In this document: in pieces, positions 1-44,450 of the stretch
Numbering within the stretch: position 1 is the stretch's first letter
How the letters are laid out: each line of letters starts with the position of its first letter
From: Psammoneis japonica
Taxonomy: Eukaryota
NCBI GenBank assembly: GCA_008632985.1
Contig: QPGO01000019.1
Coordinates: 186,001 to 250,000 of the forward strand
Length of the DNA: 64,000 bases
Direction: 5' to 3'
Program-made: the position numbers and the translations under genes
Notes under the pieces: generated by a model
Seen by the model: only the letters and a program-made list of their open reading frames with translations
Told to the model about the DNA's origin: nothing
Database searches by the model: none

Positions 1-2860
1 GCATGCCTGCCAGCACACACCTGAAAAAGGCGTGCAAGTCTCCCAACCCGGCTCTCAATGTCCACCGGCACAATGAACCCGTCGCCACCAACACGGTGCA
101 CTCTGACACACCCGCCATCAACTCCTGCTGCGTCAGTGCACAGCTCTTTGTCAGCACGGAATCTCTTGTCACCGATGTCTGCGGCAGATGACATCCACAA
201 CAGTGCTCAGGTTGAGATCAGCAACAAGGTCCTTGGCATCCTTCGTGCCCTCTTCATCTCTAGTTGGCAAAGCGAGCCTCACCACCAGCACCAGAACTTT
301 GCTGAGCACCGCTGCCAGACTGTGAAAACCATGGCCAACACAATCATGAATCGCTTTGGATCTCCCGCACACACCTGGCTCCTCGCCCTCATGCATGTGT
401 GCTTTGTGCTTGACCACACTGTGTCTGCCAAGCTACACCGGTGTACCCCCACTGAGGTGCTGTCCGGTTCTACCCCTGACATCAGCCCGCTCCTTCGCTT
501 TCAATGGTGGGAACCCATGTGCTGCCACCTGGATGATTCTGACTGGCTGTCAGAATCTCGCAAACTTTGTGGTCACTTCATTGGCATTGCCAAACATGTT
601 GGTCATCAAATGATGTTCAAGATTCTCTCTGACGACACTCAGAAAATCATTTGTTGTTCCAATGTCCGCTCCGCCCATGACCCGTCTACTCTGAACCTCG
701 TCTTGACCCTCCTGAAAAAGGATCTGCTGAACCCATTGTCAAATCCCGACATGAGTCTCCGGATTCAATGGCTTCACCAGATGGGGAGACGATCAGGATG
801 CCCAAAATGCCAGTCTTCAACCCCGAGGATGTCATCGGACGCACCTTCCTCATGAATCCGCAAGAGGACAGACAATGTCACAGAGCCCACATTGTCAAAG
901 CTGTTGAAGACCATGATTGGGAAATTGGAGACAACCCTGAACTAGTCAAGTTCATTTGCTCTGTCAACAATGACAAATGTGAGGAAGTTCTTGCCTGCAA
1001 TGACATCATGCACCACATTGAGCAAGAAGACAAGGATTCTACCCTCTGGAAGTTCCGACTCATTGTCTCTCACGAAGGACCATTGAGACCTCACTGCCCA
1101 TCTTGGAAAGGCTCAAGCTACAACATCATGCTTGAATGGGAGAATGGGGGGATAACATCTGAACCCCTTGCCATCATTGCCAAGGATGATCCCGTCACCT
1201 GTGCCATTTGTGCACCCGAACACGGCTTGCTTGGCAAGACCGAAGGCTGGAAACGTTTCCGGACCATAGCTCGACGCCAGAAGAAGCTGTTCCGCATGGC
1301 CAACCAAGCCAAGCTGTGCTCCTTTCATGCCGCACCACGACACAAGCACAGATTCAAAGTGCCCCGGGACTACAAGCATGCCTTGGCTCTCAATGAACGC
1401 AATGACAACCGCAAGTGGGGAGATGCAACGGACCTCGAGATGACTCAGCTTGATGAATGCGAGGTCTTCCATGACTGTGGACACTGCAAGGACTCCAGTG
1501 CTCCGCCAGGATACAAGAAGATCAAGGTGCACCTCGTCTGTGACGTCAAACACAACAGATGGCACAAAGCACGCCTTGTCGCTGATGGGCACCTCACGGA
1601 CGCACACGTTGACAGTGTCTGCTCTGGGGCAGTGTCCCTCCGTGGCCTGCAAATGACATGTTCTTCCTGGCAGAACTCAATGACCTAGAGACCTGGGCGA
1701 CCGACATTGGGAATGCCCATCTTGAAGCCACCACTGAGGAGAAGCTGTACATTGTGGCAGGCCCGAATTTGGCAAGTTCGAATGACACATCCTTGTCATC
1801 CACAAGGCTTTGTACAGACTCTGCAGCTCCAGCCTCAGGTGGCATGAACGCTTTGCCAATTGCTTGCGCAATGAGGGCTTCTTCCCATGCCGCGCCGAAC
1901 CCGACATCTGGTTGCACAGGAATGGCAATCACTGCAAACACGTGGCAGCATACGTGGACGACCCAGCTTTCGCCATGAAGGACCCACAGGCTTTTGCGGA
2001 CACTCTCATGGAGAAGCACAAGTTCAAGCTCAAAGGCACTGGACCATTGGAGTTCCACCTTGGTTGCAACTTCACCCGTGACCCAGACGGCACCCTGTGT
2101 CTTGCTCCTTTCAAGTGCATTGAGCGCATGGTTGACAACTGTGCACGTCTCTTTGGGGAAAAACCTCGTGCTGATGTGCTCTTGCCTCTTGATGAGGGAG
2201 ACCACCCTGAGCTTGACACCTCCAAACTGCTTGAGCCGGATGGCATCCACCAATTTCAATCCTTGATTGGATCCCTGCAATGGGCTGCATCCCTTGGACA
2301 CATTGACATCACTGCGGCCGTCATGTCCTTGTCTGGCTTCCGTGCAGCCCCTCACCAAGGCCACTTAGACCGTGCCAAGCGTGTCTGCGGATTCCTCTCC
2401 AAGATGCAACATGGTGCCCTCCAAGTGCGCACTGAGGAGCCCGACCATTTGGATCTTCCCAAGCCCGTGTGTGACTGGTCCCAGTCTGTGTGTGGGGAGG
2501 TAGAAGAACTGCTCCCACAAGATGCACCTGAGCCACTTGGCAAGTTCGTCACTGCGACCCATTGCGTTGACGCAAACTTGTTTCATTGCATGCTCACAGG
2601 ACGCTCAGTCACAGGCATCCTGCATTTCCTCAACAAGTTTCCGGTTGATTGGTTCTCCAAGAAACAAGCAACAGTCGAGACTGCCACATGTGGATCTGAG
2701 TTTGTTGCCGCAAGGACCTGCGTTGAGCAGATCATTGATCTGCACATCACTTTACATCACCTTGGCGTCCCCATCCATGAAACCTGTTGCATGTTTGGGG
2801 ACAACAAGTTGGTTGTGGACAGTGCCACCATCCCGCACTCTAAGTTGCACCGCCCTCTCA
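1..2860 (+). mobile_element. Decayed Ty1/copia (diatom CoDi-like) pol: integrase, RT, RNase H; truncated by the window edge
   Basis: Frameshifted ORFs 58-855, 768-1688 and 1810-2913 carry SEPHHQHQNFAE (integrase), EPLAIIAKDDPVTCA..GWKRF, DVKH..HKARLVADGHLT, DIGNAHLEA, YVDD and VDWFSKKQATVETATCGSEF, in copia order IN-RT-RH. Confidence 0.93.
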
Positions 2861-4457: not shown

Positions 4458-7400
4458 ATGTTTGCCAGTAGAGCAGTTCTTCTCCTGCTCGCTGCAGCTT
4501 TTGCTCCGCAGAGGAGCGGCGCTCTAAAGGTACCGACGGATGAATCGAGTGTACTTTGTTTTGGAGTGCTTTGTTCTTGCTTCCTTTTTGATTACTCACC
4601 AGGTTTTTCCCTCTCCGTATAAACTCGTTGTACAAAGGGAATAGAAGACTACTTTCCTCCTCAACAAGAAGAATACCTTCCGCTTGATCCTTATTCCCGA
4701 ATGCTGAATGACATGGGCGAACCCGAATTTGATACTATGCAGCCGTGTTTGGACGCCGCAACTCCCGGAAACCCTTCGTGCACAGCAGGTGATGTTGACA
4801 TTGCACAAGCGACCGTGACTGAAACCACTGGTTGCGTCGATGGCATGGTCACTTTTAACGTGAGCATAATGGTAGCCGTGACTGGAATGGGGGGGGACCG
4901 CCACGACATTGGCATTTTCTTTTCAGAAAATGCCACGATTGGAGACGCTCGAGGCGGAGACTCCTGCACCGTGGTCACGCCTCCATATGGAAATGGTGGA
5001 TTCTTTGATTTGGATATGACCAACGACCAATTTATTGATAACAATATGGTTCCCGGTATTCAAGACGAATGCGGGGACATTGCAGATGGCAACAACATTA
5101 CTTTTTCGGTTGAGCTCACATTTAACTGCACGGACAACACGTTAGATTTGCCGTATTGCGTTTCCTCTTCTACGCCGGGAAACAATAAACTTTGCACGGT
5201 CCCCGTGGAAGGTGAAGTTGGTCTACTCGAGTGTTTTTTTTAATTTGGTTGCTCGGTCCCATGCTTCTCAGTTTCTTACATGTCTGCTTACTTTTTCCGC
5301 TATCTCTATCATCTTTTGTAGCGTACCCAAAGCCAGGCTCCAAGTGTGTGTGCAATGAGACCTTCTCGTTGGACGTTAGTCCAATCACTCCAAGTCCAAC
5401 TCCTGCGCCGACGCCGTCTCCGACTCCCTCTCCTACCCCGAGCCCAACTCCGTCGCCCACACCTGCGCCGACGCCGAGTCCAACTCCAGCACCGACGCCT
5501 TCTCCCACCCCGAGTCCAACACCTGCGCCGACGCCGTCGCCTACTCCAGCGCCAACACCTGCTCCTACCACGAGTCCGACACCTGCGCCGACGCCTTCAC
5601 CTACCCCGGCTCCAACTCCTGCTCCGACACCCAGTCCAACTCCTGCTCCTACCCCGAGTCCAACCCCTGCTCCTACACCAGCGCCAACGCCGTCACCGAC
5701 CCCTGCTCCTACCCCGAGTCCGACGCCGTCCCCTACACCAGCGCCAACGCCGTCTCCGACGCCTGCTCCTACCCCGAGTCCGACGCCGTCCCCTACACCA
5801 GCGCCAACGCCGTCTCCAACCCCTGCTCCTACTCCGAGTCCGACCCCTGCTCCTACACCAGCGCCAACTCCGAGTCCAACCCCTGCTCCTACACCAGCGC
5901 CAACGCCGTCTCCAACTCCTGCTCCTACACCAGCTCCTACCCCGAGTCCGACGCCGTCCCCAACACCAGCGCCAACCCCGTCTCCAACTCCTGCTCCTAC
6001 CCCGAGTCCAACCCCTGCTCCTACACCAGCGCCAACGCCGTCACCGACCCCTGCTCCTACCCGAGTCCGACGCCGTCCCCTACACCAGCGCCAACGCCGT
6101 CTCCAACTCCTGCTCCTACACCAGCGCCAACGCCGTCTCCGACGCCTGCTCCTACCCCGAGTCCGACGCCGTCCCCTACACCAGCGCCAACGCCGTCTCC
6201 AACCCCTGCTCCTACTCCGAGTCCGACCCCTGCTCCTACACCAGCGCCAACTCCGAGTCCAACCCCTGCTCCTACACCAGCGCCAACGCCGTCTCCAACT
6301 CCTGCTCCTACACCAGCTCCAACGCCGTCTCCGACCCCTGCTCCTACCCCGAGTCCGACGCCGTCCCCAACACCAGCGCCAACCCCGTCTCCAACTCCTG
6401 CTCCTACCCCGAGTCCAACCCCTGCTCCTACACCAGCGCCAACGCCGTCACCGACCCCTGCTCCTACCCCGAGTCCGACGCCGTCCCCTACACCAGCGCC
6501 AACGCCGTCTCCAACTCCTGCTCCTACACCAGCGCCAACGCCGTCTCCGACGCCTGCTCCTACCCCGAGTCCGACGCCGTCCCCTACACCAGCGCCAACG
6601 CCGTCTCCAACCCCTGCTCCTACTCCGAGTCCGACCCCGTCTCCAACCCCTGCTCCTACTCCGAGTCCAACCCCTGCTCCTACACCAGCGCCAACGCCGT
6701 CTCCAACTCCTGCTCCTACACCAGCTCCAACGCCGTCTCCGACCCCTGCTCCTACCCCGAGTCCGACGCCGTCCCCAACACCAGCGCCTACCCCGTCTCC
6801 AACTCCTGCTCCTACCCCGAGTCCAACCCCTGCTCCTACACCAGCGCCAACGCCGTCACCGACCCCTGCTCCTACCCCGAGTCCGACGCCGTCCCCTACA
6901 CCAGCGCCAACGCCGTCTCCAACTCCTGCTCCTACACCAGCGCCAACGCCGTCTCCGACGCCTGCTCCTACCCCGAGTCCGACGCCGTCCCCTACACCAG
7001 CGCCAACGCCGTCTCCAACCCCTGCTCCTACTCCGAGTCCGACCCGTCTCCAACCCCTGCTCCTACTCCGAGTCCAACCCCTGCTCCTACACCAGCGCCA
7101 ACGCCGTCTCCAACTCCTGCTCCTACCCCGAGTCCGACGCCGTCCCCTACACCAGCGCCAACGCCGTCACCCACTGTGCGGAAGGGCGCTTGCTGCCCAC
7201 TAGCTGGATCCAATAGGGTTTGCTTCAAGGGAACTGAAGAAGAATGTCTTTCAAATTACGGACTCTGGCAAGGAAACGGCGTAACGTGCGAGGACGCAGA
7301 TTGCCCGACGTCACCTCCTACAACCTCTCCGACAAAGAGCCCTACCATGGCTCCAACTACCCCGGCTCCTACCATGGCTCCCACTACGCCGGCTCCAACC

Positions 7401-8841
7401 AAAGCTCCTACACTGCCCCCAACGAAAGTTGATCAGAGTCCTGGTGCATGCTGCACCTTGCTTGATGGATGCAAGTACCTTTCTCAGGAGACGTGCGCTT
7501 TGGGCGGTGGTACATTCACGAAACCAAACCAAAAGTGTAAGGACACTGAATGCCCCAACAAGGGAGCTTGCTGCTTGGAGGATGGGTGTAAGCGAACCTT
7601 TAAGAAGGAGTGTACCAACCAAGGAGGCAAGTTCCAGGGATTTGGCGTGCAATGTGAACTCGGCTTGTGCCCGACCAAACCACCAACTCCGGCTCCTAGC
7701 ACCGCAGCGCCTACGCAAAAACCCACCATTACTCCTCCTCCGACTGGAGCGTGCTGTGATGTCATGAAGGATGAATGTGAACAAACCGCAGAAGAAGATT
7801 GTGACACGGGCGTATTTTAGGACTTGGAGTCAAGTGCAAGCCGGGCATATGTCCCACAAGGACCTCTCCCGGAGCCTGTTGCCTCAAATCTGGAGAGTGC
7901 CGTTTCTGGTCTCAACAGACGTGCGCTGCCAACGGAAACTTCTTCTTGGGTCCTGGCACTTCCTGTAAGAATGTGGTGTGCCCAGTCAAGAATCCAAGCC
8001 CTACCCTGCTCCTGACAAGAAACCGTTAGGGGCCTGCTGCTTTGACAGTGGACTATGCCGCAACCTCGTTCCTGCCGTGTGCAGGAGGAAGTATGGCAAG
8101 TTCATCGCCATTGGTACCATGTGCAAGGATGACAACACCTGTCCCATTGGTCGCCGCGGCAAGCCTGGTGCATGCTGCTTGGTTGATGTAAGGAAATGCA
8201 AAACTCTCCCTGAGAAGAAGTGCATCAAGAAGGGCGGGCATTTTTCTGGCGAAGGTGTCAAGTGCAGCATGAAATCGTGCCCTGCCGCTCATGGTGCATG
8301 CTGCTTGCCCAATGGGTCGTGTGCCGTGTTGAAGAAGAACACTTGTGTCAGGATGAAGCATGGAAAGTTTGTTGGATTCGGAACTAAGTGCAAGAAGAAT
8401 ACCTGCTCCTCTAAACCGGGAGCTTGTTGCTGGAAGAATGGCAAGTGCATGTTGTTGAAGCAATCCAAGTGCTACAGGCGTGGTGGAAAATTCGTGGGAG
8501 CCGGTGTTAAGTGCCGCAAGAAGACTGCCCCAAGAGTCCTGATTACAGGTAGTCTGTACCCCGATTGAGGGTGTGGAAAAGGTGCGTGCTGCTTGCCCAA
8601 TGGATCGTGTGCCGTGTTGAAGAAGAATGCTTGTGTCAATAAGAGCAATGGAAAGTTTGTCGGATTCGACACCAAGTGCAAGAAGAAGACATGCTCCTCT
8701 ACACCCGGTGCCTGTTGCTGGAAGAACGGCAAATGCATGGTGTTGGAACAGACCAAGTGCTGCAGGCGCGGAGGAAAATTCGTGGGAACCGGTGTCAAGT
8801 GCCGCAAGAAGACCTGCCCCAAAATCCCTGATTACAAGTAG
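4458..8841 (+). CDS. Large secreted protein: signal peptide, acidic Cys-containing domain, long Pro/Thr mucin-like stalk, multiple GACC cysteine repeats, Lys-rich C-terminus
   Basis: [22 protein letters not shown] leader; GT-AG introns at about 4530-4602 and 5212-5321 (the second joins in frame to AYPKPGSKC); (TPSP/TPAP)n; repeated GACC-x-C...GGxFxGxGxxC units; several single-base frameshifts in homopolymers; frame just after intron 1 unresolved. Confidence 0.8.
5387..7175 (+). repeat. Coding 12-bp-unit tandem repeat (TPSP/TPAP) with higher-order duplications
   Basis: Recurrent blocks such as ccagcgccaacgccgtctccaactcctgctcctacc; frame slips near 6061 and 7043 each lack one C in a C-run. Confidence 0.95.
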
Positions 8842-35473: not shown

Positions 35474-35914
35474 GAATGCCATACAGATGCATGACTTGCA
35501 TTTTCCATTTCATTAAAAGAGATTGTAACAATACAAAATAGATGCTCCATAGGATACTAATGTTGTGTAGTGCGGTACTTGTATGCGAGTTGTCCCCTTT
35601 CATCAACAACTACACATGCCGGTAGTTCTCATGTCATCTGAATTTCCCAGTGTACGAGTCACCGCAGTTTCTTTTCAACGTATTTGACGGCACAATATAG
35701 ACATCTCACTGTCGAATGAATTAGCTTGTTCCGAGGGCTGATCAGTTCGGTTTCCAAGCTGCAGTTCTGCAGTTCCACACCAAAAAAAAACACAGCAACT
35801 CCTGTTTTGCGTCCATCACTCTAGACTGGTTCATTCCCTTCCATCTTGCCCCTTTTTCTTGTCTGTTGGCAAGGTCGTGTTGTTGATGTCACAGAATGTG
35901 CAGAAAGAGAACAA

Positions 35915-36261
35915 TGTGACAATATTCATATTTGTTTGTTTTTACAACAACATCGGACCTCCACGATTCAAGTCAGAGATCCAAGATTCGAACCCCGTGT
36001 GCGATGCTCAGTCTCGAATCCCGCGGAAGCCGAGTCACGAATGCGATGTTTGTTCCTAGCTTCGCGCTTGTTTAACTTCGCGTTTCCTTTAGATGGCAGC
36101 TGCATCTGCTCATAAAAACTGCTCATAATCTTTCTAACGTACTGATTATCACCTCTCAACTTTTGGTACAATAAAGTTACTGATTGATTGTTGTATCGCA
36201 ATTACAGCTTTTAATCACTGAAAGTGCAGACGAATCCCAGAATTCCGGCTACTTTCCCACA
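35915..36261 (+). repeat. 5' LTR
   Basis: TGTGACAATATTC...TTTCCCACA; 346/347 identical to the 3' copy by manual alignment. Confidence 0.97.
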
Positions 36262-36280
36262 CGCTTCCTCTGCGCAATCT
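36262..36280 (+). other. Putative non-canonical primer-binding site
   Basis: CGCTTCCTCTGCGC directly after the LTR; reverse complement GCGCAGAGGAAGCG resembles the eukaryotic tRNAi-Met D-arm; no TGG. Confidence 0.6.
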
Positions 36281-36335
36281 ACAAGTTAAGTCAATCGATC
36301 TTAAGCTCTCGATTCTACTTTACTTTGCTGTTACT

Positions 36336-37835
36336 ATGGTCACGCAGACACGAACCGCGGCTGCTCTAGCTGCCTCTGTTGCAGCTCCCGCTGCTGCACC
36401 CGCTGCAGCTCCTACCACTGCTGCTGCTCCGGCAACAGCACCTGCTCCTGCAGCCGCTCCAGTTGCTCCTGTACCTCCCCCAGTCGTTCCTCCCGGTGTA
36501 CCTCCAGGAGGAGGTGGCGGAGGAGGTGGAGGTGGAGGTGGAGTCCCACCAGGTGGAGTCCCGCCAGGTGGACCACCATTGGCACCTGTGCCACCACTAC
36601 CGATCTTCGCGTTGACTCCAGGTCAACACCGTCCCAACATCTTCATCGACTACGGCACATCGCAAGGCCTCAAGCTTTGGAACGCCGCTACTGCACCGCT
36701 GCCGCACGAGTTCAACGGCGATTCAGAAGGTCTCAAACGGTTTTGTGAGACACTCAGTCAACGAGCTGCCGAGGCAGGATGGAAAACAGGGGCAGGAGAC
36801 ATACTTACCATTCCCGACGCGAATGGAACTCCACGAGATCTCATCTCCGAGTACGGACTACTCACTCTACAGGATGTTAGAACCCACGCGAACACCTTCG
36901 CGAATCTACCTACGCGACAAGCACAGAACAATGTGCAGATGGCCGAGGCGATCTCTCAATCCCTTACGGAGGAAGCAAGAGACAAGATATTGGCTGAGAT
37001 AGATTCCTATACGATCAATGGAAATCAAATCGGCACACTATTCTTCAAGCTACTTACGCAAAAGGCCATCGTTGACACACGCTCTACCACCAACTACTTC
37101 CGCGAGAACTTGTCAAGCCTGGATACGTACATGGCGGCTGTTAACTCGGACATCGAAGAGTTCAACAAGTACGCCAAGCTCAACGTTGACGGACTCCAAG
37201 CTAGAGGAGAGCAGTGCGACGACCTTATCATGAATCTATTCAAAGGATACGCCGCAGCTGCTGACGAAGTATTCGTCAAGTACATCATGTTACACAAGGA
37301 CAGGTACGACGATGGTGAGGAATTCACGCCGACGCAAATCATGACGTTGGCACTGAACAAATATACTAACCTCAAGCGCGAGAAGAAGTGGGGAGCACTA
37401 TCACCGGCTGAAGAGCAAATCGTCGCGCTTACAGCCAAGGTAGACTCCATCAAGGATCAGAACCTTCAGCTGTCTAAAGCTTTGAAGGCCAAGGCTGGTT
37501 CAACCAAGGAAAGAAGCACACGGTCAAGGAAGACCAAGACCACTCCACGTCAGAGACAGAAAGCGGACGAAGCCTGGAAGAAAGTCCCGCCTAAGGAGGA
37601 CGCTCCTAAGAAGACAGTGAACGGTCATCAGTACTATCACAAGCGCGTCAACAATCGCGACTATCACTGGTGCCCATATCACACTGCTTGGGTCATACAC
37701 TTACCTGATGATCCGGGCAACCAAGGCTGTAGACTCCGCAAGCAACAGTCTGCTCCATCCACAGACACGTCGGACAAGAAAGTCTCCTTCGCAAGTGCTA
37801 TCTCTACCATCCTAAATGAAGTGGATCAAGAGTGA
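36336..37835 (+). CDS. gag: Gag of the copia element
   Basis: 499-aa ORF after the LTR; Ala/Pro/Gly-rich N-terminus, basic C-terminus with YHWCPYHTAWVIH knuckle-like motif; ends in TGA in frame with pol. Confidence 0.9.
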   Translation: MVTQTRTAAALAASVAAPAAAPAAAPTTAAAPATAPAPAAAPVAPVPPPVVPPGVPPGGGGGGGGGGGGVPPGGVPPGGPPLAPVPPLPIFALTPGQHRPNIFIDYGTSQGLKLWNAATAPLPHEFNGDSEGLKRFCETLSQRAAEAGWKTGAGDILTIPDANGTPRDLISEYGLLTLQDVRTHANTFANLPTRQAQNNVQMAEAISQSLTEEARDKILAEIDSYTINGNQIGTLFFKLLTQKAIVDTRSTTNYFRENLSSLDTYMAAVNSDIEEFNKYAKLNVDGLQARGEQCDDLIMNLFKGYAAAADEVFVKYIMLHKDRYDDGEEFTPTQIMTLALNKYTNLKREKKWGALSPAEEQIVALTAKVDSIKDQNLQLSKALKAKAGSTKERSTRSRKTKTTPRQRQKADEAWKKVPPKEDAPKKTVNGHQYYHKRVNNRDYHWCPYHTAWVIHLPDDPGNQGCRLRKQQSAPSTDTSDKKVSFASAISTILNEVDQE

Positions 37836-40800
37836 CTGCTCTACAGGTTCACTCTGACACTGCTGCTGTCCTTGCAGATAGCCGTCACTGTGTCAGTGCT
37901 CCTGATAGCGGTCGCTGGCGTCATGAAATGTGCAGCACCGATCTGGATCATACTACTATTCATGATGCTATCCCTTCCTTCAGAAAAGTGTAAGCGCCTG
38001 TCACATGCCGTAATGACGCTGGGTGAGTGGGTCATCTCACATATCCTGGCTGAACTAGGCACAAGACGAGTTAAGACTTACCAGCGACGGCCAACGACGA
38101 GGTACTGCGCACGGTATCATACGTCGACGAGGCCAGGTCACCGCTCCAGAGTGGCCACCAAGAAGGCTCACTATGTCATTACGCGATACAAGACGGTTAG
38201 AGCGTACAACTCAACCACACCATACCGTCCCGAGCGAACGGAGCCCACTTACGATTCGGACTCATTCGTAATCGGTGTCGACTCGCATTCTTCCTGCACC
38301 ATGTCCAACGACGAGGCACACTTCATTGGTCCTCTTCGCAAATCCAACAAAGTGGTACTCGGTGTCAAGGGCTACTTACGTGCTAAGGGAGAAGGAACAG
38401 TGCAGTGGGCAATTGAGGACGACATGGGACGAGTGCACAGCATCAAAATTCGAGACGCGCTACTCGTACCGGACTTACCTCACTGTCTTCTCTGCCCGCA
38501 GCAATGGAGCCAACAAGCTAATGACCACACGCCAGAGCCTCACGGAACCGTATCTTGGACTAGGGACGACGGACTATTACTCATGTGGGATCAACGCAAG
38601 TATCATCGCCTGATTCCATGGTCCGCCAACTCTAACGTCGCCAAGATGCGCTCCGCACCCGGTTCCAACAAATACCGGACCTTTGCAGCCGCTGTCGAAG
38701 AACAAACCGATATCGAAACTATCGAGCACGTGGCCTATCAAGCTCACATCATACCACCAGACGACGAGAGTATTGCGAATGATGACGAGGCTGCAATTGA
38801 TACAGACGTCTTCAGAAGTCCATCCGAGACACGTCCTTCCGAGACGCAAGACGCACGCAACACTACTGATGAGGATGCTCCTGTCTTATTTGAGCAAACA
38901 GACGGAGCAAGTCGTTCAGACTCAGACGAGGAAAACCTAAGGGATTTCACGACACCGGAGGTACAGCAGGACTTACCGGAACCCATCAACATCATACCAA
39001 ATGATGACGCCCTTGCTGCCACAGATGACCAGGGTGAACTATTGCGTTGGCATTACCGCCTGGGCCACATGTCATTCAAAATGATAAAGCTATTGGCCGC
39101 CCTAGGCATTCTACCGAAACGCCTTACAAAGGTACACAACCCAAAATGTGCCGGCTGCCTATACGGTGCCATGACGAAACGACCATGGCGCTCCAAGTCC
39201 AAGCGGAACCGACGAATCCACTTGGCAACTTCGCCTGGAGAAGCCGTATCCGTCGACCAGCTCGAGAGTCCTACTCCTGGATTGATCCCACAGCTCAAAG
39301 GGAGACCTACGAAGCAAAGGTATCGAGCAGCGACAATTTTTGTTGATCATTTCAGCGGATTGGGATACATATATTTGCAGAAAGGACTTACCTCAGCCGA
39401 GACGCTCGAAGCCAAGCACGCTTTCGAGGCATTCGCACGCCGGATGCACGTCCGTATTCAACACTACCACGCCGACAATGGAAGATTTGCTGATAATGCT
39501 TTCTTACAAGACGTCAAGAAGCAACAGCAAACAATATCCTATTGTGGGGTCAACGCCCACTTCCAAAACGGCATCGCGGAGAAAAGAATAAGGGACCTCC
39601 AAGAGCAATCTCAGAAGCAACTCCTGCATGCAAAAGTGAGATGGCCAACGGCTATTGAGTTGAACTTATGGCCAAGCGCTCTCAGGAGCTCAAACGAGAT
39701 CAAGAATCACTTACCGAATCACGAGGATGGCTCTTCTCCGCTGGAACGTTTCTCGTCCGTCAAGGTCCAGCCTAATCTCAAACAACACCATACCTTCGGC
39801 TGCCCCGTCTACGCCTTGCACAACCGGTTGCAGGGAGGAGGTAGGCTGCCTAAGTGGGACCCAAGGGCAAGGTTAGGAATCAATTTGGGACCATCAACAA
39901 GACACGCAGGTTCAGTTACCTTGGTTTTGAATTTGCAGACCGGACTCGTATCGCCGCAATTTCACGTACAATTTGACGACTTCTTTGAGACTGTTCGTCC
40001 ATCTGCTGGGAATCCTCCTACATTCTCACAATGGCAAGGCATTACAGGTTTCAGACAACTCAAGACAAGGAGTACTTTCAACATCTTTGGGAAATCAAGT
40101 GACGTACCGGTTGAGGGATCAGTCCCTACCACAACGGAACCACCTGAGCCGAATTCGGATATCCCGTCTCAGCTGCTGCATCCTACTGATACGTCTACCA
40201 CTGATGACTCATTTGATAATGCCCAACCGGATGATGAAATGCTATACACGCCTCCAGATGATTCTGACGCACCATCTGAGCCACAGCGCACTATGGGTCA
40301 ACCCAGTACCAGTAGGTCCGGCCGACAACGACGCCCGACCGAAAGAATGCGCGAGAGCCAACTACCACGGGCTCAAGGCATTGTCTCCTACAATGCAGAG
40401 GCAGAGGCATATTATGATGCGATGCACGAGGATGATTACAAACTGCAGGACGACATGGACTCACCTATCTCTTTTCTGGCGAGCTCGGACCCCGACACCA
40501 TGTACTTTGATCAGGCCATGCGTGAACCTGACAGAGACGAATTTATCAAGGCCTGTGTTAAGGAAGTCAATGATCATATTGAAAGGAATCATTGGATACT
40601 CATTCCAAGAGAGGACGTACCTGACGATGTTGATGTTCTCCCTTCGGTATGGTCTATGAAGCGCAAAAGAGATATTAAGACCCAAGCCGTCTACAAATGG
40701 AAGTCCCGACTTAATGTGCACGGTGGAAAGCAAGAATATGCTGTCAACTACTTCCAGACCTACTCTGCCGTGGTCTTCTGGTTCACTATCCGGCTCCTAC

Positions 40801-42094
40801 TGATCATTGCCATTCTTAAGAAGTGGCATACACGCCAAGTCGACTTCGTTCTGGCGTATCCGCATGCCGATATCGAATATGATATGTACATGGAGTTACC
40901 TGCAGGAATTGAAACAAAATATGGCAATGGTAAGACTCATGTTCTGAAGTTGCTCAAGAACTTATATGGACAAAAGCAAGCAGGGAGAGTATGGCAAGAA
41001 CACTTACGTGATGGATTGTTAAGGATTGGTTTCGTACAATCGGCAGTTGATGAGTGCCTGTATTTTCGTGGCAATGTCATTTTCATTCATTATGTCGATG
41101 ACGGTATCTTTGCATCCCCTGACAAGTCTGCTATTGACAAGGCGATACAGGATATCAGAGATGAGAATTTTGATATTGATGATCAAGGCACTCTGGACGA
41201 CTATCTCGGTGTCAACGTCGAGACACTACCAGACGGCAGAATGAAACTTACCCAACCTCACCTTATCAATCAGATACTGGAGATGGCCAATATTCCAAAG
41301 AGACTACCAGATAAGCCTACTCCTGCTCCTTCCTCCAAGATCCTCCACAGGCATATGAGTGAGCCTGCTTTCCAAGGGAGCTTTCATTACCGATCCATCA
41401 TCGGCAAGCTCAATTTTCTGGAGAAGAGCACTCGACCGGATATCGCTTACGCGGTGCACCAAGTCGCACGCTTTTCTTCCGATCCCAAGGTTTCTCACGG
41501 TGAAGCCGTACTATGGCTCTGTAAGTACCTAAGGTCAACCAGAACTGAAGGTATTATACTACAGCCCTCAACGGACAAGTCCCTTGAAGTTCACGCCGAC
41601 GCGGACTTTGTGGGCAATTGGAATAAGCTGACTGCACCCGATGACGTCGGCACTTCCAAATCTCGAACTGGGTTTGTCATCACCTATGCAGGATGTCCGA
41701 TTGTCTGGACGTCCAAGCTACAGACTCAGATCGCGCTCAGCACTACTGAAGCTGAATTTATCGCTCTTTCGGAAAGTCTTCGAAGCGCCATCCCAATTAT
41801 GAACCTCATTAAAGAATTTATGGATCACGGTCATAATGTCCCTTCCAAGACACCAGTCGTACATTGTAAGGCTTTTGAAGACAATTCTGGAGCATTGGAG
41901 ATCGCGAGATTGCCTAGATGCGTCCTCGGACAAAACACTTCAACCTCACTCTCCACCACTTTAAAGACCATGTTCGCAAAGGTCTCATATCAATCCTACC
42001 AATTGATACGGCGGATCAGATTGCAGACATTTTCACCAAACCTCTACCACAAAATCTCTTCGTTAAACACAGGAAATCGCTCCTTAAGTGGTAA
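37836..42094 (+). CDS. pol: Pol polyprotein (protease, integrase, RT, RNase H)
   Basis: IGVDSH protease; WHYRLGH..CAGC; VSVDQL / HADNG / NGIAE; WKSRLNVHGG; LYGQKQAG; YVDD; STTEAEF; 1-nt deletion near 41916, after which the shifted frame reads MRPRTKHF...ADIFTKPL to TAA at 42092-42094. Confidence 0.95.
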
Positions 42095-42137
42095 GACGTT
42101 TTCGAGTCATCATTCCACCCGACATTGTTGAAGGGAG

Positions 42138-42484
42138 TGTGACAATATTCATATTTGTTTGTTTTTACAACAACATCGGACCTCCACGATTCAAGTCAGA
42201 GATCCAAGATTCGAACCCCGTGTGCGATGCTCAGTCTCGAATCCCGCGGAAGCCGAGTCACGAATGCGATGTTTGTTCCTAGCTTCGCGCTTGTTTAACT
42301 TCGCGTTTCCTTTAGATGGCAGCTGCATCTGCTCATAAAAACTGCTCATAATCTTTCTAACGTACTGATTATCACCTCTCAACTTTTGGTACAATAAAGT
42401 TACTGATTGATTGTTGTATCGCAATTACAGCTTTTAATCACTGAAAGTGCAGACGAATCCCAGAATTCCGGCCACTTTCCCACA
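42138..42484 (+). repeat. 3' LTR
   Basis: Copy of 35915-36261 with one difference (C at 42473 versus T at 36250). Confidence 0.97.
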
Positions 42485-44450
42485 AACAACTCAACAAAGG
42501 GCATGATTGCTGACAGGCACACTTCAGCCGCAGAGTCTCAAAAATTGGGCACGCCAGGAGCTGCCTGCTCTGCTGCATGTTGCAGACAATGTGATTTTTG
42601 CAAAGTCCAGTGATTTTGGCCAACTGAGCACTTTTGTAAAAAAGTCAAACATGGCAGCATTGCAGTGGTGGCAAGTGCTGCCAGCTCCCACTGTTCAATC
42701 TCTTGTGCCACATTGCTCTCCACCTGTTGACATGTGCTGGTCCATTTTCAAGCAATGTGCTGGCCATTGTGACATGCCCCAGCTCCAGCTGGCACCACAA
42801 CCTCTCAGACTGCTCTGCTGCCACTCAACAAAAATTTTGTTGCTGTTGAGCACAAGATTTCCACATGTCAAAATGAGCTCACTGGGGAGTGGCTGCCTGT
42901 GGCAAAGTGTCACACAACACTGGCTGCTCACAAAAGCAGTGGTTCTCGACACATCAAAGCCATTTTTGTGCACTTTTGTTTGTGCCACAGTTGCAGCCTC
43001 TTGCCCATCATGGAGCAAGGCCATGCAGTGGAAAATGCAAGAAGGGGAGCAGCCACATGCTGCCTGATGAAAAAAAAAGAAATCAGAAATGATTGTCCTC
43101 AGGTGTGCAGTGCGTGCAGCTGTCAGAGTTTGCAGGTGCTGCAAACTGACAACCATGCACTGAAGGTGCAGCACATGCAAAAAAGGGCTGCTGAGGAGCA
43201 AACAGTGGACAGGCAGTGGATTCTTGCCTGCGCACAGTCTGCTGCACAGTCTGCAAGAAAAATGAACTCCACATTCCTGAGGCTTCTTTCAGACATCATG
43301 GAATTTTCTGATGAGCTGTGCACATGTTCCCATGTGCAGATTCAAAAAGTGAGAAAACACCCCAAAAAGGTTTGTGAGAGCATGCCAAACAAATTGAGGC
43401 AGCAGCTCACTTTTTTCCGGCATGGGATTTTTGCACAAAACTTCTGGTCCTGGCGCTGAGCACATTGACAACTTCATTGTTGTTGTTTCAATTTCTGGAT
43501 CACAAAATTGCCTCTTCTTTTTCTGTTGGCAGCTTCGCTGGTTTGGCGCAGAGCCCACAAACAGAATTCTGCAAGCCCAATGGCAACCAGCATCCCACCC
43601 AGGCTTCAGCAGGCTGGACTGCATTGTGTGCACACCTCTCTGACTTGTTGTCTGGTGGCTCCTTCCTTGCATGTGCTGCAGCCAAGAGCTGCCTTTCATT
43701 CTTCACACTGTGCACCAGGATGGCCACCAGCAGCTGCACAGAGCTGCGCTGAACAAAAAAACATGCCATGGCCAACTGGCCCAACCTGGCCAACTTCACA
43801 CCATGAGCTTCTGTGTGCTCTGTGTCAACAATGTGCTGAAAAAATCTCTCAAGCACTGCACTTTTGAGCTGGTGGTGGCTTCCCATTTTTCTCTTTTCTC
43901 CTGTCCCACTCCTTTCTCTCTGTGTTGTGTGGCAGCAACAGCGTCACAGAAGCAGGGCTTCATTCTCTCTTCTGATGTTGCTTTTTGGCAAAAGGGCCAT
44001 GTGCTGATCATGTGCTGCAAGATGAGACAAACCCATGAGCAAAAGACAGAAGGCTCTGGTGATTTGCAGCGCCCGCAGCAGGAGAAACACAAACAGCAGC
44101 TCTGTTTGAGCTCACAGATCTGTGACAAATGGCAGGAAGTTTCTCTGCAGGCCACCCATTTCTGCCACTGGCATCATGCAGAATCCATGGCAACCTTGAG
44201 TTTCTGTGCTGCTTGTGCCAGCTGCAGCTGGGGCTGTTTCTTTCAAGAGGACGAGAGTTTTCTCTTGCACGTTGCTTGCTGCAAGCATTTTTTGTTGTTT
44301 GGTTTGACTGTCGTGTTTTTCACTTTTCCCTCTTACTTCTTGCCATGTCCACTGCATCGCCGCTTTTCCACTTCCTTGTGATGTCTCTTTCTCTCTCGCT
44401 GTTTTTTTGACATGTGTGTGCCATTTGTTGCCTTTTCAGATTTTACTGCA
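42485..44450. other. TpA/CpG-depleted domain interrupted by the young copia (continues at about 35740-35914)
   Basis: Almost no TA; similar composition on both sides of the TSD. Confidence 0.88.

Follow-up and report, generated by a model that had tools for sequence, protein, structure and literature searches.

The primer-binding site (PBS) of a Ty1/copia retrotransposon of Psammoneis japonica adjoins the 5' LTR and is complementary to the D-arm of an initiator-type tRNA-Met. We consider that this site is probably primed by a 5' fragment of initiator tRNA-Met (tRNAiMet) of about 24 nt, cut after G24, which is the best explanation of the observations given below. The element was analyzed in a stretch of 64,000 nucleotides of contig QPGO01000019.1, hereafter the window.

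Positions 35915-42484 of the window contain an intact LTR retrotransposon of the Ty1/copia superfamily (Pseudoviridae). Its features are as follows:

35910-35914, no strand: left copy of the target-site duplication AACAA, identical to the 5 bases after the 3' LTR (42485-42489)
35915-36261, plus strand: 5' LTR of 347 nt, TGTG...CACA, direct repeat of 42138-42484
36262-36275, plus strand: putative PBS CGCTTCCTCTGCGC, predicted to pair with positions 10-24 of the tRNA-Met D-arm
36276-36335, plus strand: untranslated leader from the PBS to the gag ATG, unconserved except for an A at +16 (22 of 30 contexts)
36336-37835, plus strand: gag, an ORF call of 499 aa ending with a TGA at 37833-37835
37836-42131, plus strand: pol, 1419 aa, in the same frame as gag, beyond the single TGA
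42130-42137, plus strand: polypurine tract GAAGGGAG, adjoining the 3' LTR, read off the sequence
42138-42484, plus strand: 3' LTR, direct repeat of 35915-36261
42485-42489, no strand: right copy of the target-site duplication AACAA, matching 35910-35914

As expected for a Ty1/copia element, the LTRs have TG...CA ends and are flanked by a 5-bp target-site duplication, the integrase precedes a reverse transcriptase of the RVT_2 type, and a PBS at the 5' LTR is accompanied by a polypurine tract at the 3' LTR. The order in pol is beta-barrel/protease region, integrase, reverse transcriptase (RVT_2) and RNase H, with Pfam matches to Pol_BBD (residues 136-212), gag_pre-integrs (382-432), SH3_retrovirus (633-703) and RVT_2 (915-1142, E 1.2e-36). 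The N-terminus of gag is a low-complexity stretch of Ala, Pro and Gly, and the 499-aa ORF had no match in Pfam. The two LTRs are identical at 346 of 347 positions, the sole mismatch being at 36250; judging by this near-identity, the insertion is recent.

Elsewhere in the window, a stretch at 1765-2835 (plus strand) weakly resembles a reverse transcriptase (23% identity to residues 1016-1348 of pol, tblastn E 3e-12) and probably represents an ancient relic of another copia-like element. An array with a period of 12 nt, in more than 100 overlapping copies, occupies positions 5327-7000 inside the ORFs 5261-7216 and 5355-7820; GC content reaches its maximum for the window here (62% at 6001-8000), and the long frames around the array had no Pfam match. 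Other ORFs of the window include UCH, LRR+MORN and glycosyltransferase-like genes; they are long and intron-poor, with a GC content of about 48%, and mark the host simply as a eukaryote.

The 5' LTR terminates in ...TTTCCCACA at 36261, and directly 3' of its CA stands CGCTTCCTCTGCGCAATCT (36262-36280). The position of the LTR ends is fixed by the second LTR copy (42138-42484) and by the AACAA duplication. The preliminary description of this DNA had reported exactly this string after the LTR, without TGG, and had given a reverse complement that is also correct, since 36256-36280 reads as it stated. Only part of the 19-nt string stands as a conserved site: the first 14 bases (36262-36275) are kept in related elements, and the last five (AATCT) are not. 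The 19-mer does not recur elsewhere in the window, even when 3 mismatches are allowed (0.02 occurrences expected by chance). The 3' end of a mature tRNA was rejected as primer because TGG is absent after the LTR. We found no complementarity of the PBS to the anticodon arm and no overlap with an anticodon-arm PBS, so that the site, as had been proposed, is complementary neither to the CCA end nor to the anticodon half of the tRNA.

ARAGORN identified no tRNA gene in the 64-kb window, and the window's own sequence was therefore used as a probe: the 16-mer GCGCAGAGGAAGCGTG, the reverse complement of the 14-base PBS together with the LTR-terminal CA. This probe was scanned in viral contigs, largely binned as giant viruses, whose tRNAs thus serve as proxies in place of those of host genomes. 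It was found at 56 loci. At 33 of these ARAGORN called a tRNA-Met(CAT) with the 16-mer at tRNA positions 10-25, corresponding to the D stem-loop, and at another locus a tRNA-Pro. At twelve of the 56 loci the 16-mer is embedded in one and the same sequence, which is not a tRNA (contigs L001, L010, L015, L016, L021, L027, L029, L032, L033, L038, L047 and L054), and the other loci are scattered. The tRNA genes holding the 16-mer number 35, of which 34 are tRNA-Met(CAT), and many of them belong to clusters of tRNA genes on giant-virus-binned contigs. Their T-loop reads GATC[GA]AAA in 28 cases out of 35, and many start with A1 and end with ...TA, features which we take to be hallmarks of eukaryotic cytoplasmic initiator tRNAs; the loci L024, L043, L013 and L039 are examples of this initiator type. 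These results support, with proxy tRNAs, the earlier claim that the PBS matches the D-arm of initiator tRNA-Met (33 of 56 viral loci, mostly of the eukaryotic-initiator type).

The 14 bases that follow the LTR pair with G10 to G24, which comprise both strands of the D stem and the D loop, and the LTR-terminal CA could in addition pair with U25 and G26. The match to the tRNA ends at position 9; beyond it the AATCT of the window differs from the tRNA complement. The tRNAiMet of the host would accordingly be expected to read GCGCAGAGGAAGCG at positions 10-24 of its D-arm.

Two other viral loci deserve mention. On contig L026, which belongs to a giant-virus MAG bin, the 16-mer lies outside any tRNA gene at about 301-316, and on the opposite strand the motif is preceded by CA, as in a PBS; a copia-like element may thus be present on this giant-virus-binned contig. 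Contig L041 contains, at about 240-330 on the minus strand, a tRNA-Met-like gene with the same D-arm that seems to be interrupted 3' of the anticodon loop by an insertion, perhaps an intron; ARAGORN does not call this gene as Met.

The site could be a PBS served by another RNA with the same D-arm, such as an elongator tRNA-Met, some other tRNA or a fragment of a tRNA precursor. A T-loop of bacterial type occurs in seven of the 35 tRNA genes that hold the 16-mer, and an initiator therefore cannot be told from another tRNA-Met by its D-arm alone; one match is the tRNA-Pro, and the tRNA evidence comes from viral contigs rather than from the tRNA set of the host. We nevertheless regard a different primer RNA as unlikely, given the 34 tRNA-Met(CAT) and the 28 initiator-type T-loops among these 35 genes, and given that the tRNA-Met primers reported for Copia lineages, whether truncated or used at the 3' end, are all tRNAiMet in the accessible text of two studies (PMC6317226, PMC10886601).

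The conservation of the site was then examined in related elements. Homologues of pol are abundant in metagenome-derived protein sets (more than 1000, the best with 69% identity), and in the protein atlas pol falls only in generic RVT_2 clusters of mixed eukaryotic taxa; the pol protein had no match in the viral contigs. A metagenome scan with a 30-sequence pol alignment yielded 80 loci, 375,452 bases in total, whose pol is 36-61% identical to that of the window. The 14-mer is present with at most 2 substitutions in 33 of these 80 relatives (29 exact, 3 with one substitution and 1 with two), and two more, L068 and L096, carry it with a 1-nt insertion. It is thus kept in 35 of 80, which bears out its conservation in related elements, and it always lies on the pol strand, directly after the LTR end. 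A fuzzy search of the reverse strand of the 80 loci gave no match with fewer than three errors, only three-error ones. The 35 of 80 is a lower bound, without a clean denominator, since the LTR/internal junction could not be located in the other 45 loci, most of which are short contigs or start inside the leader or gag. No alternative PBS, of the anticodon-arm or CCA-end type, was found at a plausible place in the relatives lacking the motif, eight of which were inspected by eye; the few alternative tRNA matches of 10-12 nt fall inside coding sequence. ARAGORN found no tRNA gene in the 80 loci.

A base profile was established from 30 distinct flank contexts, window included, after removal of duplicates. 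Immediately upstream of the site, -3 is occupied by A or T, 28 of the 30 contexts have C at -2, and 29 have A at -1. Within the PBS, +2 to +13 are invariant (30 of 30), and +1 and +14 nearly so. Only 3 of the 30 contexts have C at +15, which faces tRNA G9, and 22 have A at +16, which faces U8; the rest is unconserved. The conserved block therefore runs from the LTR CA through 14 nt, its edge lying exactly opposite tRNA position 9. The flanks and LTRs of the carrying relatives are unrelated while the PBS is invariant, and the PBS-bearing loci are distributed over all parts of the sampled RT-RH tree (pairwise identity at least 40.9%, median 48.9%). The motif sits at the position expected for a PBS: 1.6-3.1 kb upstream of pol residue 127 or, where assembly has collapsed the two LTRs of a contig into one, 430-794 nt downstream of pol. 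The match is far beyond chance.

In the two variants with an insertion (L068:85-101 and L096:102-118 / 7263-7279), the extra base of the PBS faces the D loop of the tRNA, and the PBS of L096 is preceded by TA in place of CA. The two corresponding 15-mers were used as a specificity control: they occurred at 97 and 107 viral loci, none with a tRNA call, and no tRNA with a matching D loop was found for them in the viral contigs. These variants may reflect host-specific tRNA variants or decayed copies.

Other parts of the element were also recognized in the relatives. Junctions of the form ...GGGAG|TGT, resembling the junction of polypurine tract and LTR in the window, are present in L072, L082 and L133. 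In the window gag and pol share one frame and are separated by a single TGA (37833-37835) followed by a C. Of the 80 loci, 27 (within L057-L131) are arranged likewise, with 150 aa or more in the upstream ORF; their stop is TGA in 26 cases and TAG in one, and the next base is mostly C. The remaining 53 loci comprise 27 without a pol ORF of 700 aa, 17 in which the pol ORF reaches the start of the contig, and 9 classified as "other". The single in-frame stop codon suggests that Gag-Pol may be produced by UGA readthrough, not by frameshifting or splicing.

A second alternative is that the 14-mer is some other cis-element, acting in packaging, dimerisation or recognition of ends by the integrase, and that its likeness to the D-arm is a relic or a coincidence. 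The primer RNA being deduced, priming by another route is conceivable, and a conserved hairpin that is not a PBS occupies the PBS position in fungal GalEa elements, as described in PMC5445492. Such a role would leave unexplained the perfect complementarity to a real tRNA segment and the 3' edge that falls exactly at tRNA position 9/10; moreover, the block adjoins the LTR CA in every case, the 14-mer is not palindromic and has no upstream partner sequence that we could find, and no other PBS candidate was seen in the loci examined. We hold this alternative to be distinctly improbable. Self-priming as in Tf1, where the 5' end of the transcript folds onto the site and is cut to form the primer, is a known alternative where the PBS lacks TGG (PMC6317226) but is hardly credible here and was rejected: PBS and LTR share no inverted repeat of at least 7 nt in the window; across 29 elements, the longest stretch of the 600 nt upstream that could pair with the PBS measures 0-8 nt (a length reached by at least 15 of 200 shuffled probes in each of them); and the PBS stays invariant between elements with unrelated LTRs. 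The site shares with Tf1/sushi and the plant TAR self-primers the lack of a match to a tRNA 3' end and the need for a nuclease cut to obtain a 3'-OH; unlike theirs, it is not complementary to the element's own upstream sequence. Better pairing with the element's own 5' end, named in the preliminary description as a reason to abandon the tRNA match, was thus found neither in the window nor in the 29 elements.

Priming by a 5' fragment of tRNAiMet would proceed as follows. Positions 36262-36275 would serve as the minus-strand PBS by pairing with G10-G24 of an initiator-type tRNA-Met. Both LTR copies end in CA and are followed by the PBS or by the target duplication, so that the first deoxynucleotide would be laid opposite A36261, which would place the 3'-OH of the primer at about G24. 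As G24 is internal to the tRNA, the tRNA would have to be cut; the cut would fall between the D stem and position 26, and the 5' fragment released would measure about 24 nt. The presumed cut at G24 could be the work of a host nuclease or of the element's own RNase H. The implied end of the primer, about G24, is within the range of the 5' tRNA fragment of roughly 23-26 nt that had been postulated at the outset. The reverse transcriptase would then extend the fragment into U5-R, and the plus-strand strong-stop DNA would copy the primer back as far as position 9, so that the conserved block would be exactly 14 nt long. The 3' edge of the PBS would then be determined by a modification of G9 that prevents base pairing. 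With such a stop, +15 would be free to vary and +16 would still be able to pair with U8, which would produce the variable +15 and the mostly-A +16 of the base profile. The modified base m1G9 is present in yeast and human tRNAiMet. It is described as frequent in eukaryotic tRNAs (PMC10275265), and a comparable stop is described for the plus-strand strong-stop DNA of retroviruses, which ends at the pairing-blocking m1A58 and so sets their 18-nt PBS (PMC13191261). The D loop of the matched tRNA, AGAGGAA, is A-rich and without U, and for this reason cannot carry dihydrouridine; one may speculate that a U-less D loop is unusually easy to copy, and that the D arm is usable in these hosts on that account.

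For the joint reading we have a modest preference only: a deeply diverged clade of Ty1/copia elements of aquatic protists would use a primer of about 24 nt (positions 1-24 of tRNAiMet) and a 14-nt PBS delimited by the G9 modification. With the same reserve, the tRNA would be cut at the junction of the D stem and position 26, and the fragment would constitute a third type of tRNA-derived primer, beside the full tRNA and the anticodon-cut half.

In Drosophila copia and yeast Ty5, the partner of the PBS is reportedly the anticodon stem-loop, and roughly half of the tRNA serves as primer. The element of the window resembles them in belonging to the Ty1/copia superfamily, in the use of an initiator-type tRNA-Met, and in a TGG-less PBS that adjoins the LTR and has an internal segment of the tRNA as its partner, so that a 5' fragment would supply the 3'-OH. 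Judged against the class of elements primed by truncated tRNAiMet, its PBS is complementary to an internal segment of tRNA-Met (of the viral-contig proxies), and the paired segment is the D arm, positions 10-24 (with 25-26 in addition), not the anticodon stem-loop. Unlike in copia and Ty5, the PBS thus corresponds to the D stem-loop, the primer would be of about 24 nt and the cut would lie about 15 nt further 5'. The D-arm cut is best read as a new cut site within the truncated-tRNA priming already known from copia and Ty5. The standard PBS of Ty1/copia elements (Ty1, Tnt1 and most plant lineages) corresponds to the 3' end of full-length tRNAiMet and starts with TGG, the complement of CCA. The site described here shares with it the tRNA species and the position at the 5' LTR, and differs by the lack of a TGG start.

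In the accessible text of three studies (PMC6317226, PMC10886601, PMC10275265), priming by truncated tRNAs is known only in elements of the Copia superfamily, and 3'-truncated tRNAiMet primers are listed for Drosophila copia, yeast Ty5, Osser, Bryco, part of Gymco-II (plants) and Copia-28_PHord (rust fungi). A Repbase-based study of 2024 places truncated-tRNA priming at the anticodon loop only, in the portion of its text available (PMC10886601), and a plant survey, in the corresponding sections, distinguishes three primer types only (PMC6317226). Searches of the literature by words and by the PBS string or its complement found no D-arm PBS, the string search returning one unrelated goldfish paper only; the supplement of the study of the diatom CoDi elements and Repbase reports might mention one. 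By description, the elements analyzed here resemble these CoDi copia lineages: both are aquatic and rich in metagenomes and have short LTRs with TG/CA ends (Maumus et al. 2009, PMC2806351). The passage from gag to pol with one or no stop codon or frameshift is a further likeness, again by description (PMC2806351). In the main text of that paper the word "tRNA" has 0 occurrences and the PBS is not discussed.

Type-b 5'-tRFs, which measure 22-24 nt and are cut in the D stem (PMC9926655), agree in size and cut site with the inferred primer (tRNA positions 1 to about 24). The accessible literature on tRFs yielded no description of 5'-tRFs of this size as primers of reverse transcription; the links between tRFs and PBS described there concern 3'-tRFs that block priming, or the half-tRNA of copia (PMC9926655, PMC10275265). 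In Phaeodactylum tricornutum, small RNAs of about 19 nt extending from the D loop to the anticodon are described for 9 tRNAs (PMC4247016), indicating that cuts in or near the D arm occur in a diatom. The sequences in the accessible supplement of that paper contain no match.

The modes of priming listed for LTR elements are three, namely the 3' end of a whole tRNA, the half of a tRNA that has been cut in its anticodon arm, and self-priming, according to the accessible text of PMC6317226 and PMC10886601. A conserved D-arm PBS adds a fourth mode, in which the primer would be a quarter of a tRNA. Annotation procedures that align PBS candidates to tRNA 3' ends would miss such a site, so that the elements are scored as lacking a PBS; the invariant tag of 16 bases (CA plus the 14-mer) is a handy marker of this clade in metagenomes. 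If priming by the D-stem-cut fragment is correct, the G9 modification and the D-loop composition of host tRNAiMet are predicted to shape the usable primer site. The D-arm PBS provides a testable link between 5' tRNA fragments cut in the D stem and the replication of retroelements and, if true, this would be the first natural role of type-b 5'-tRFs as replication primers.
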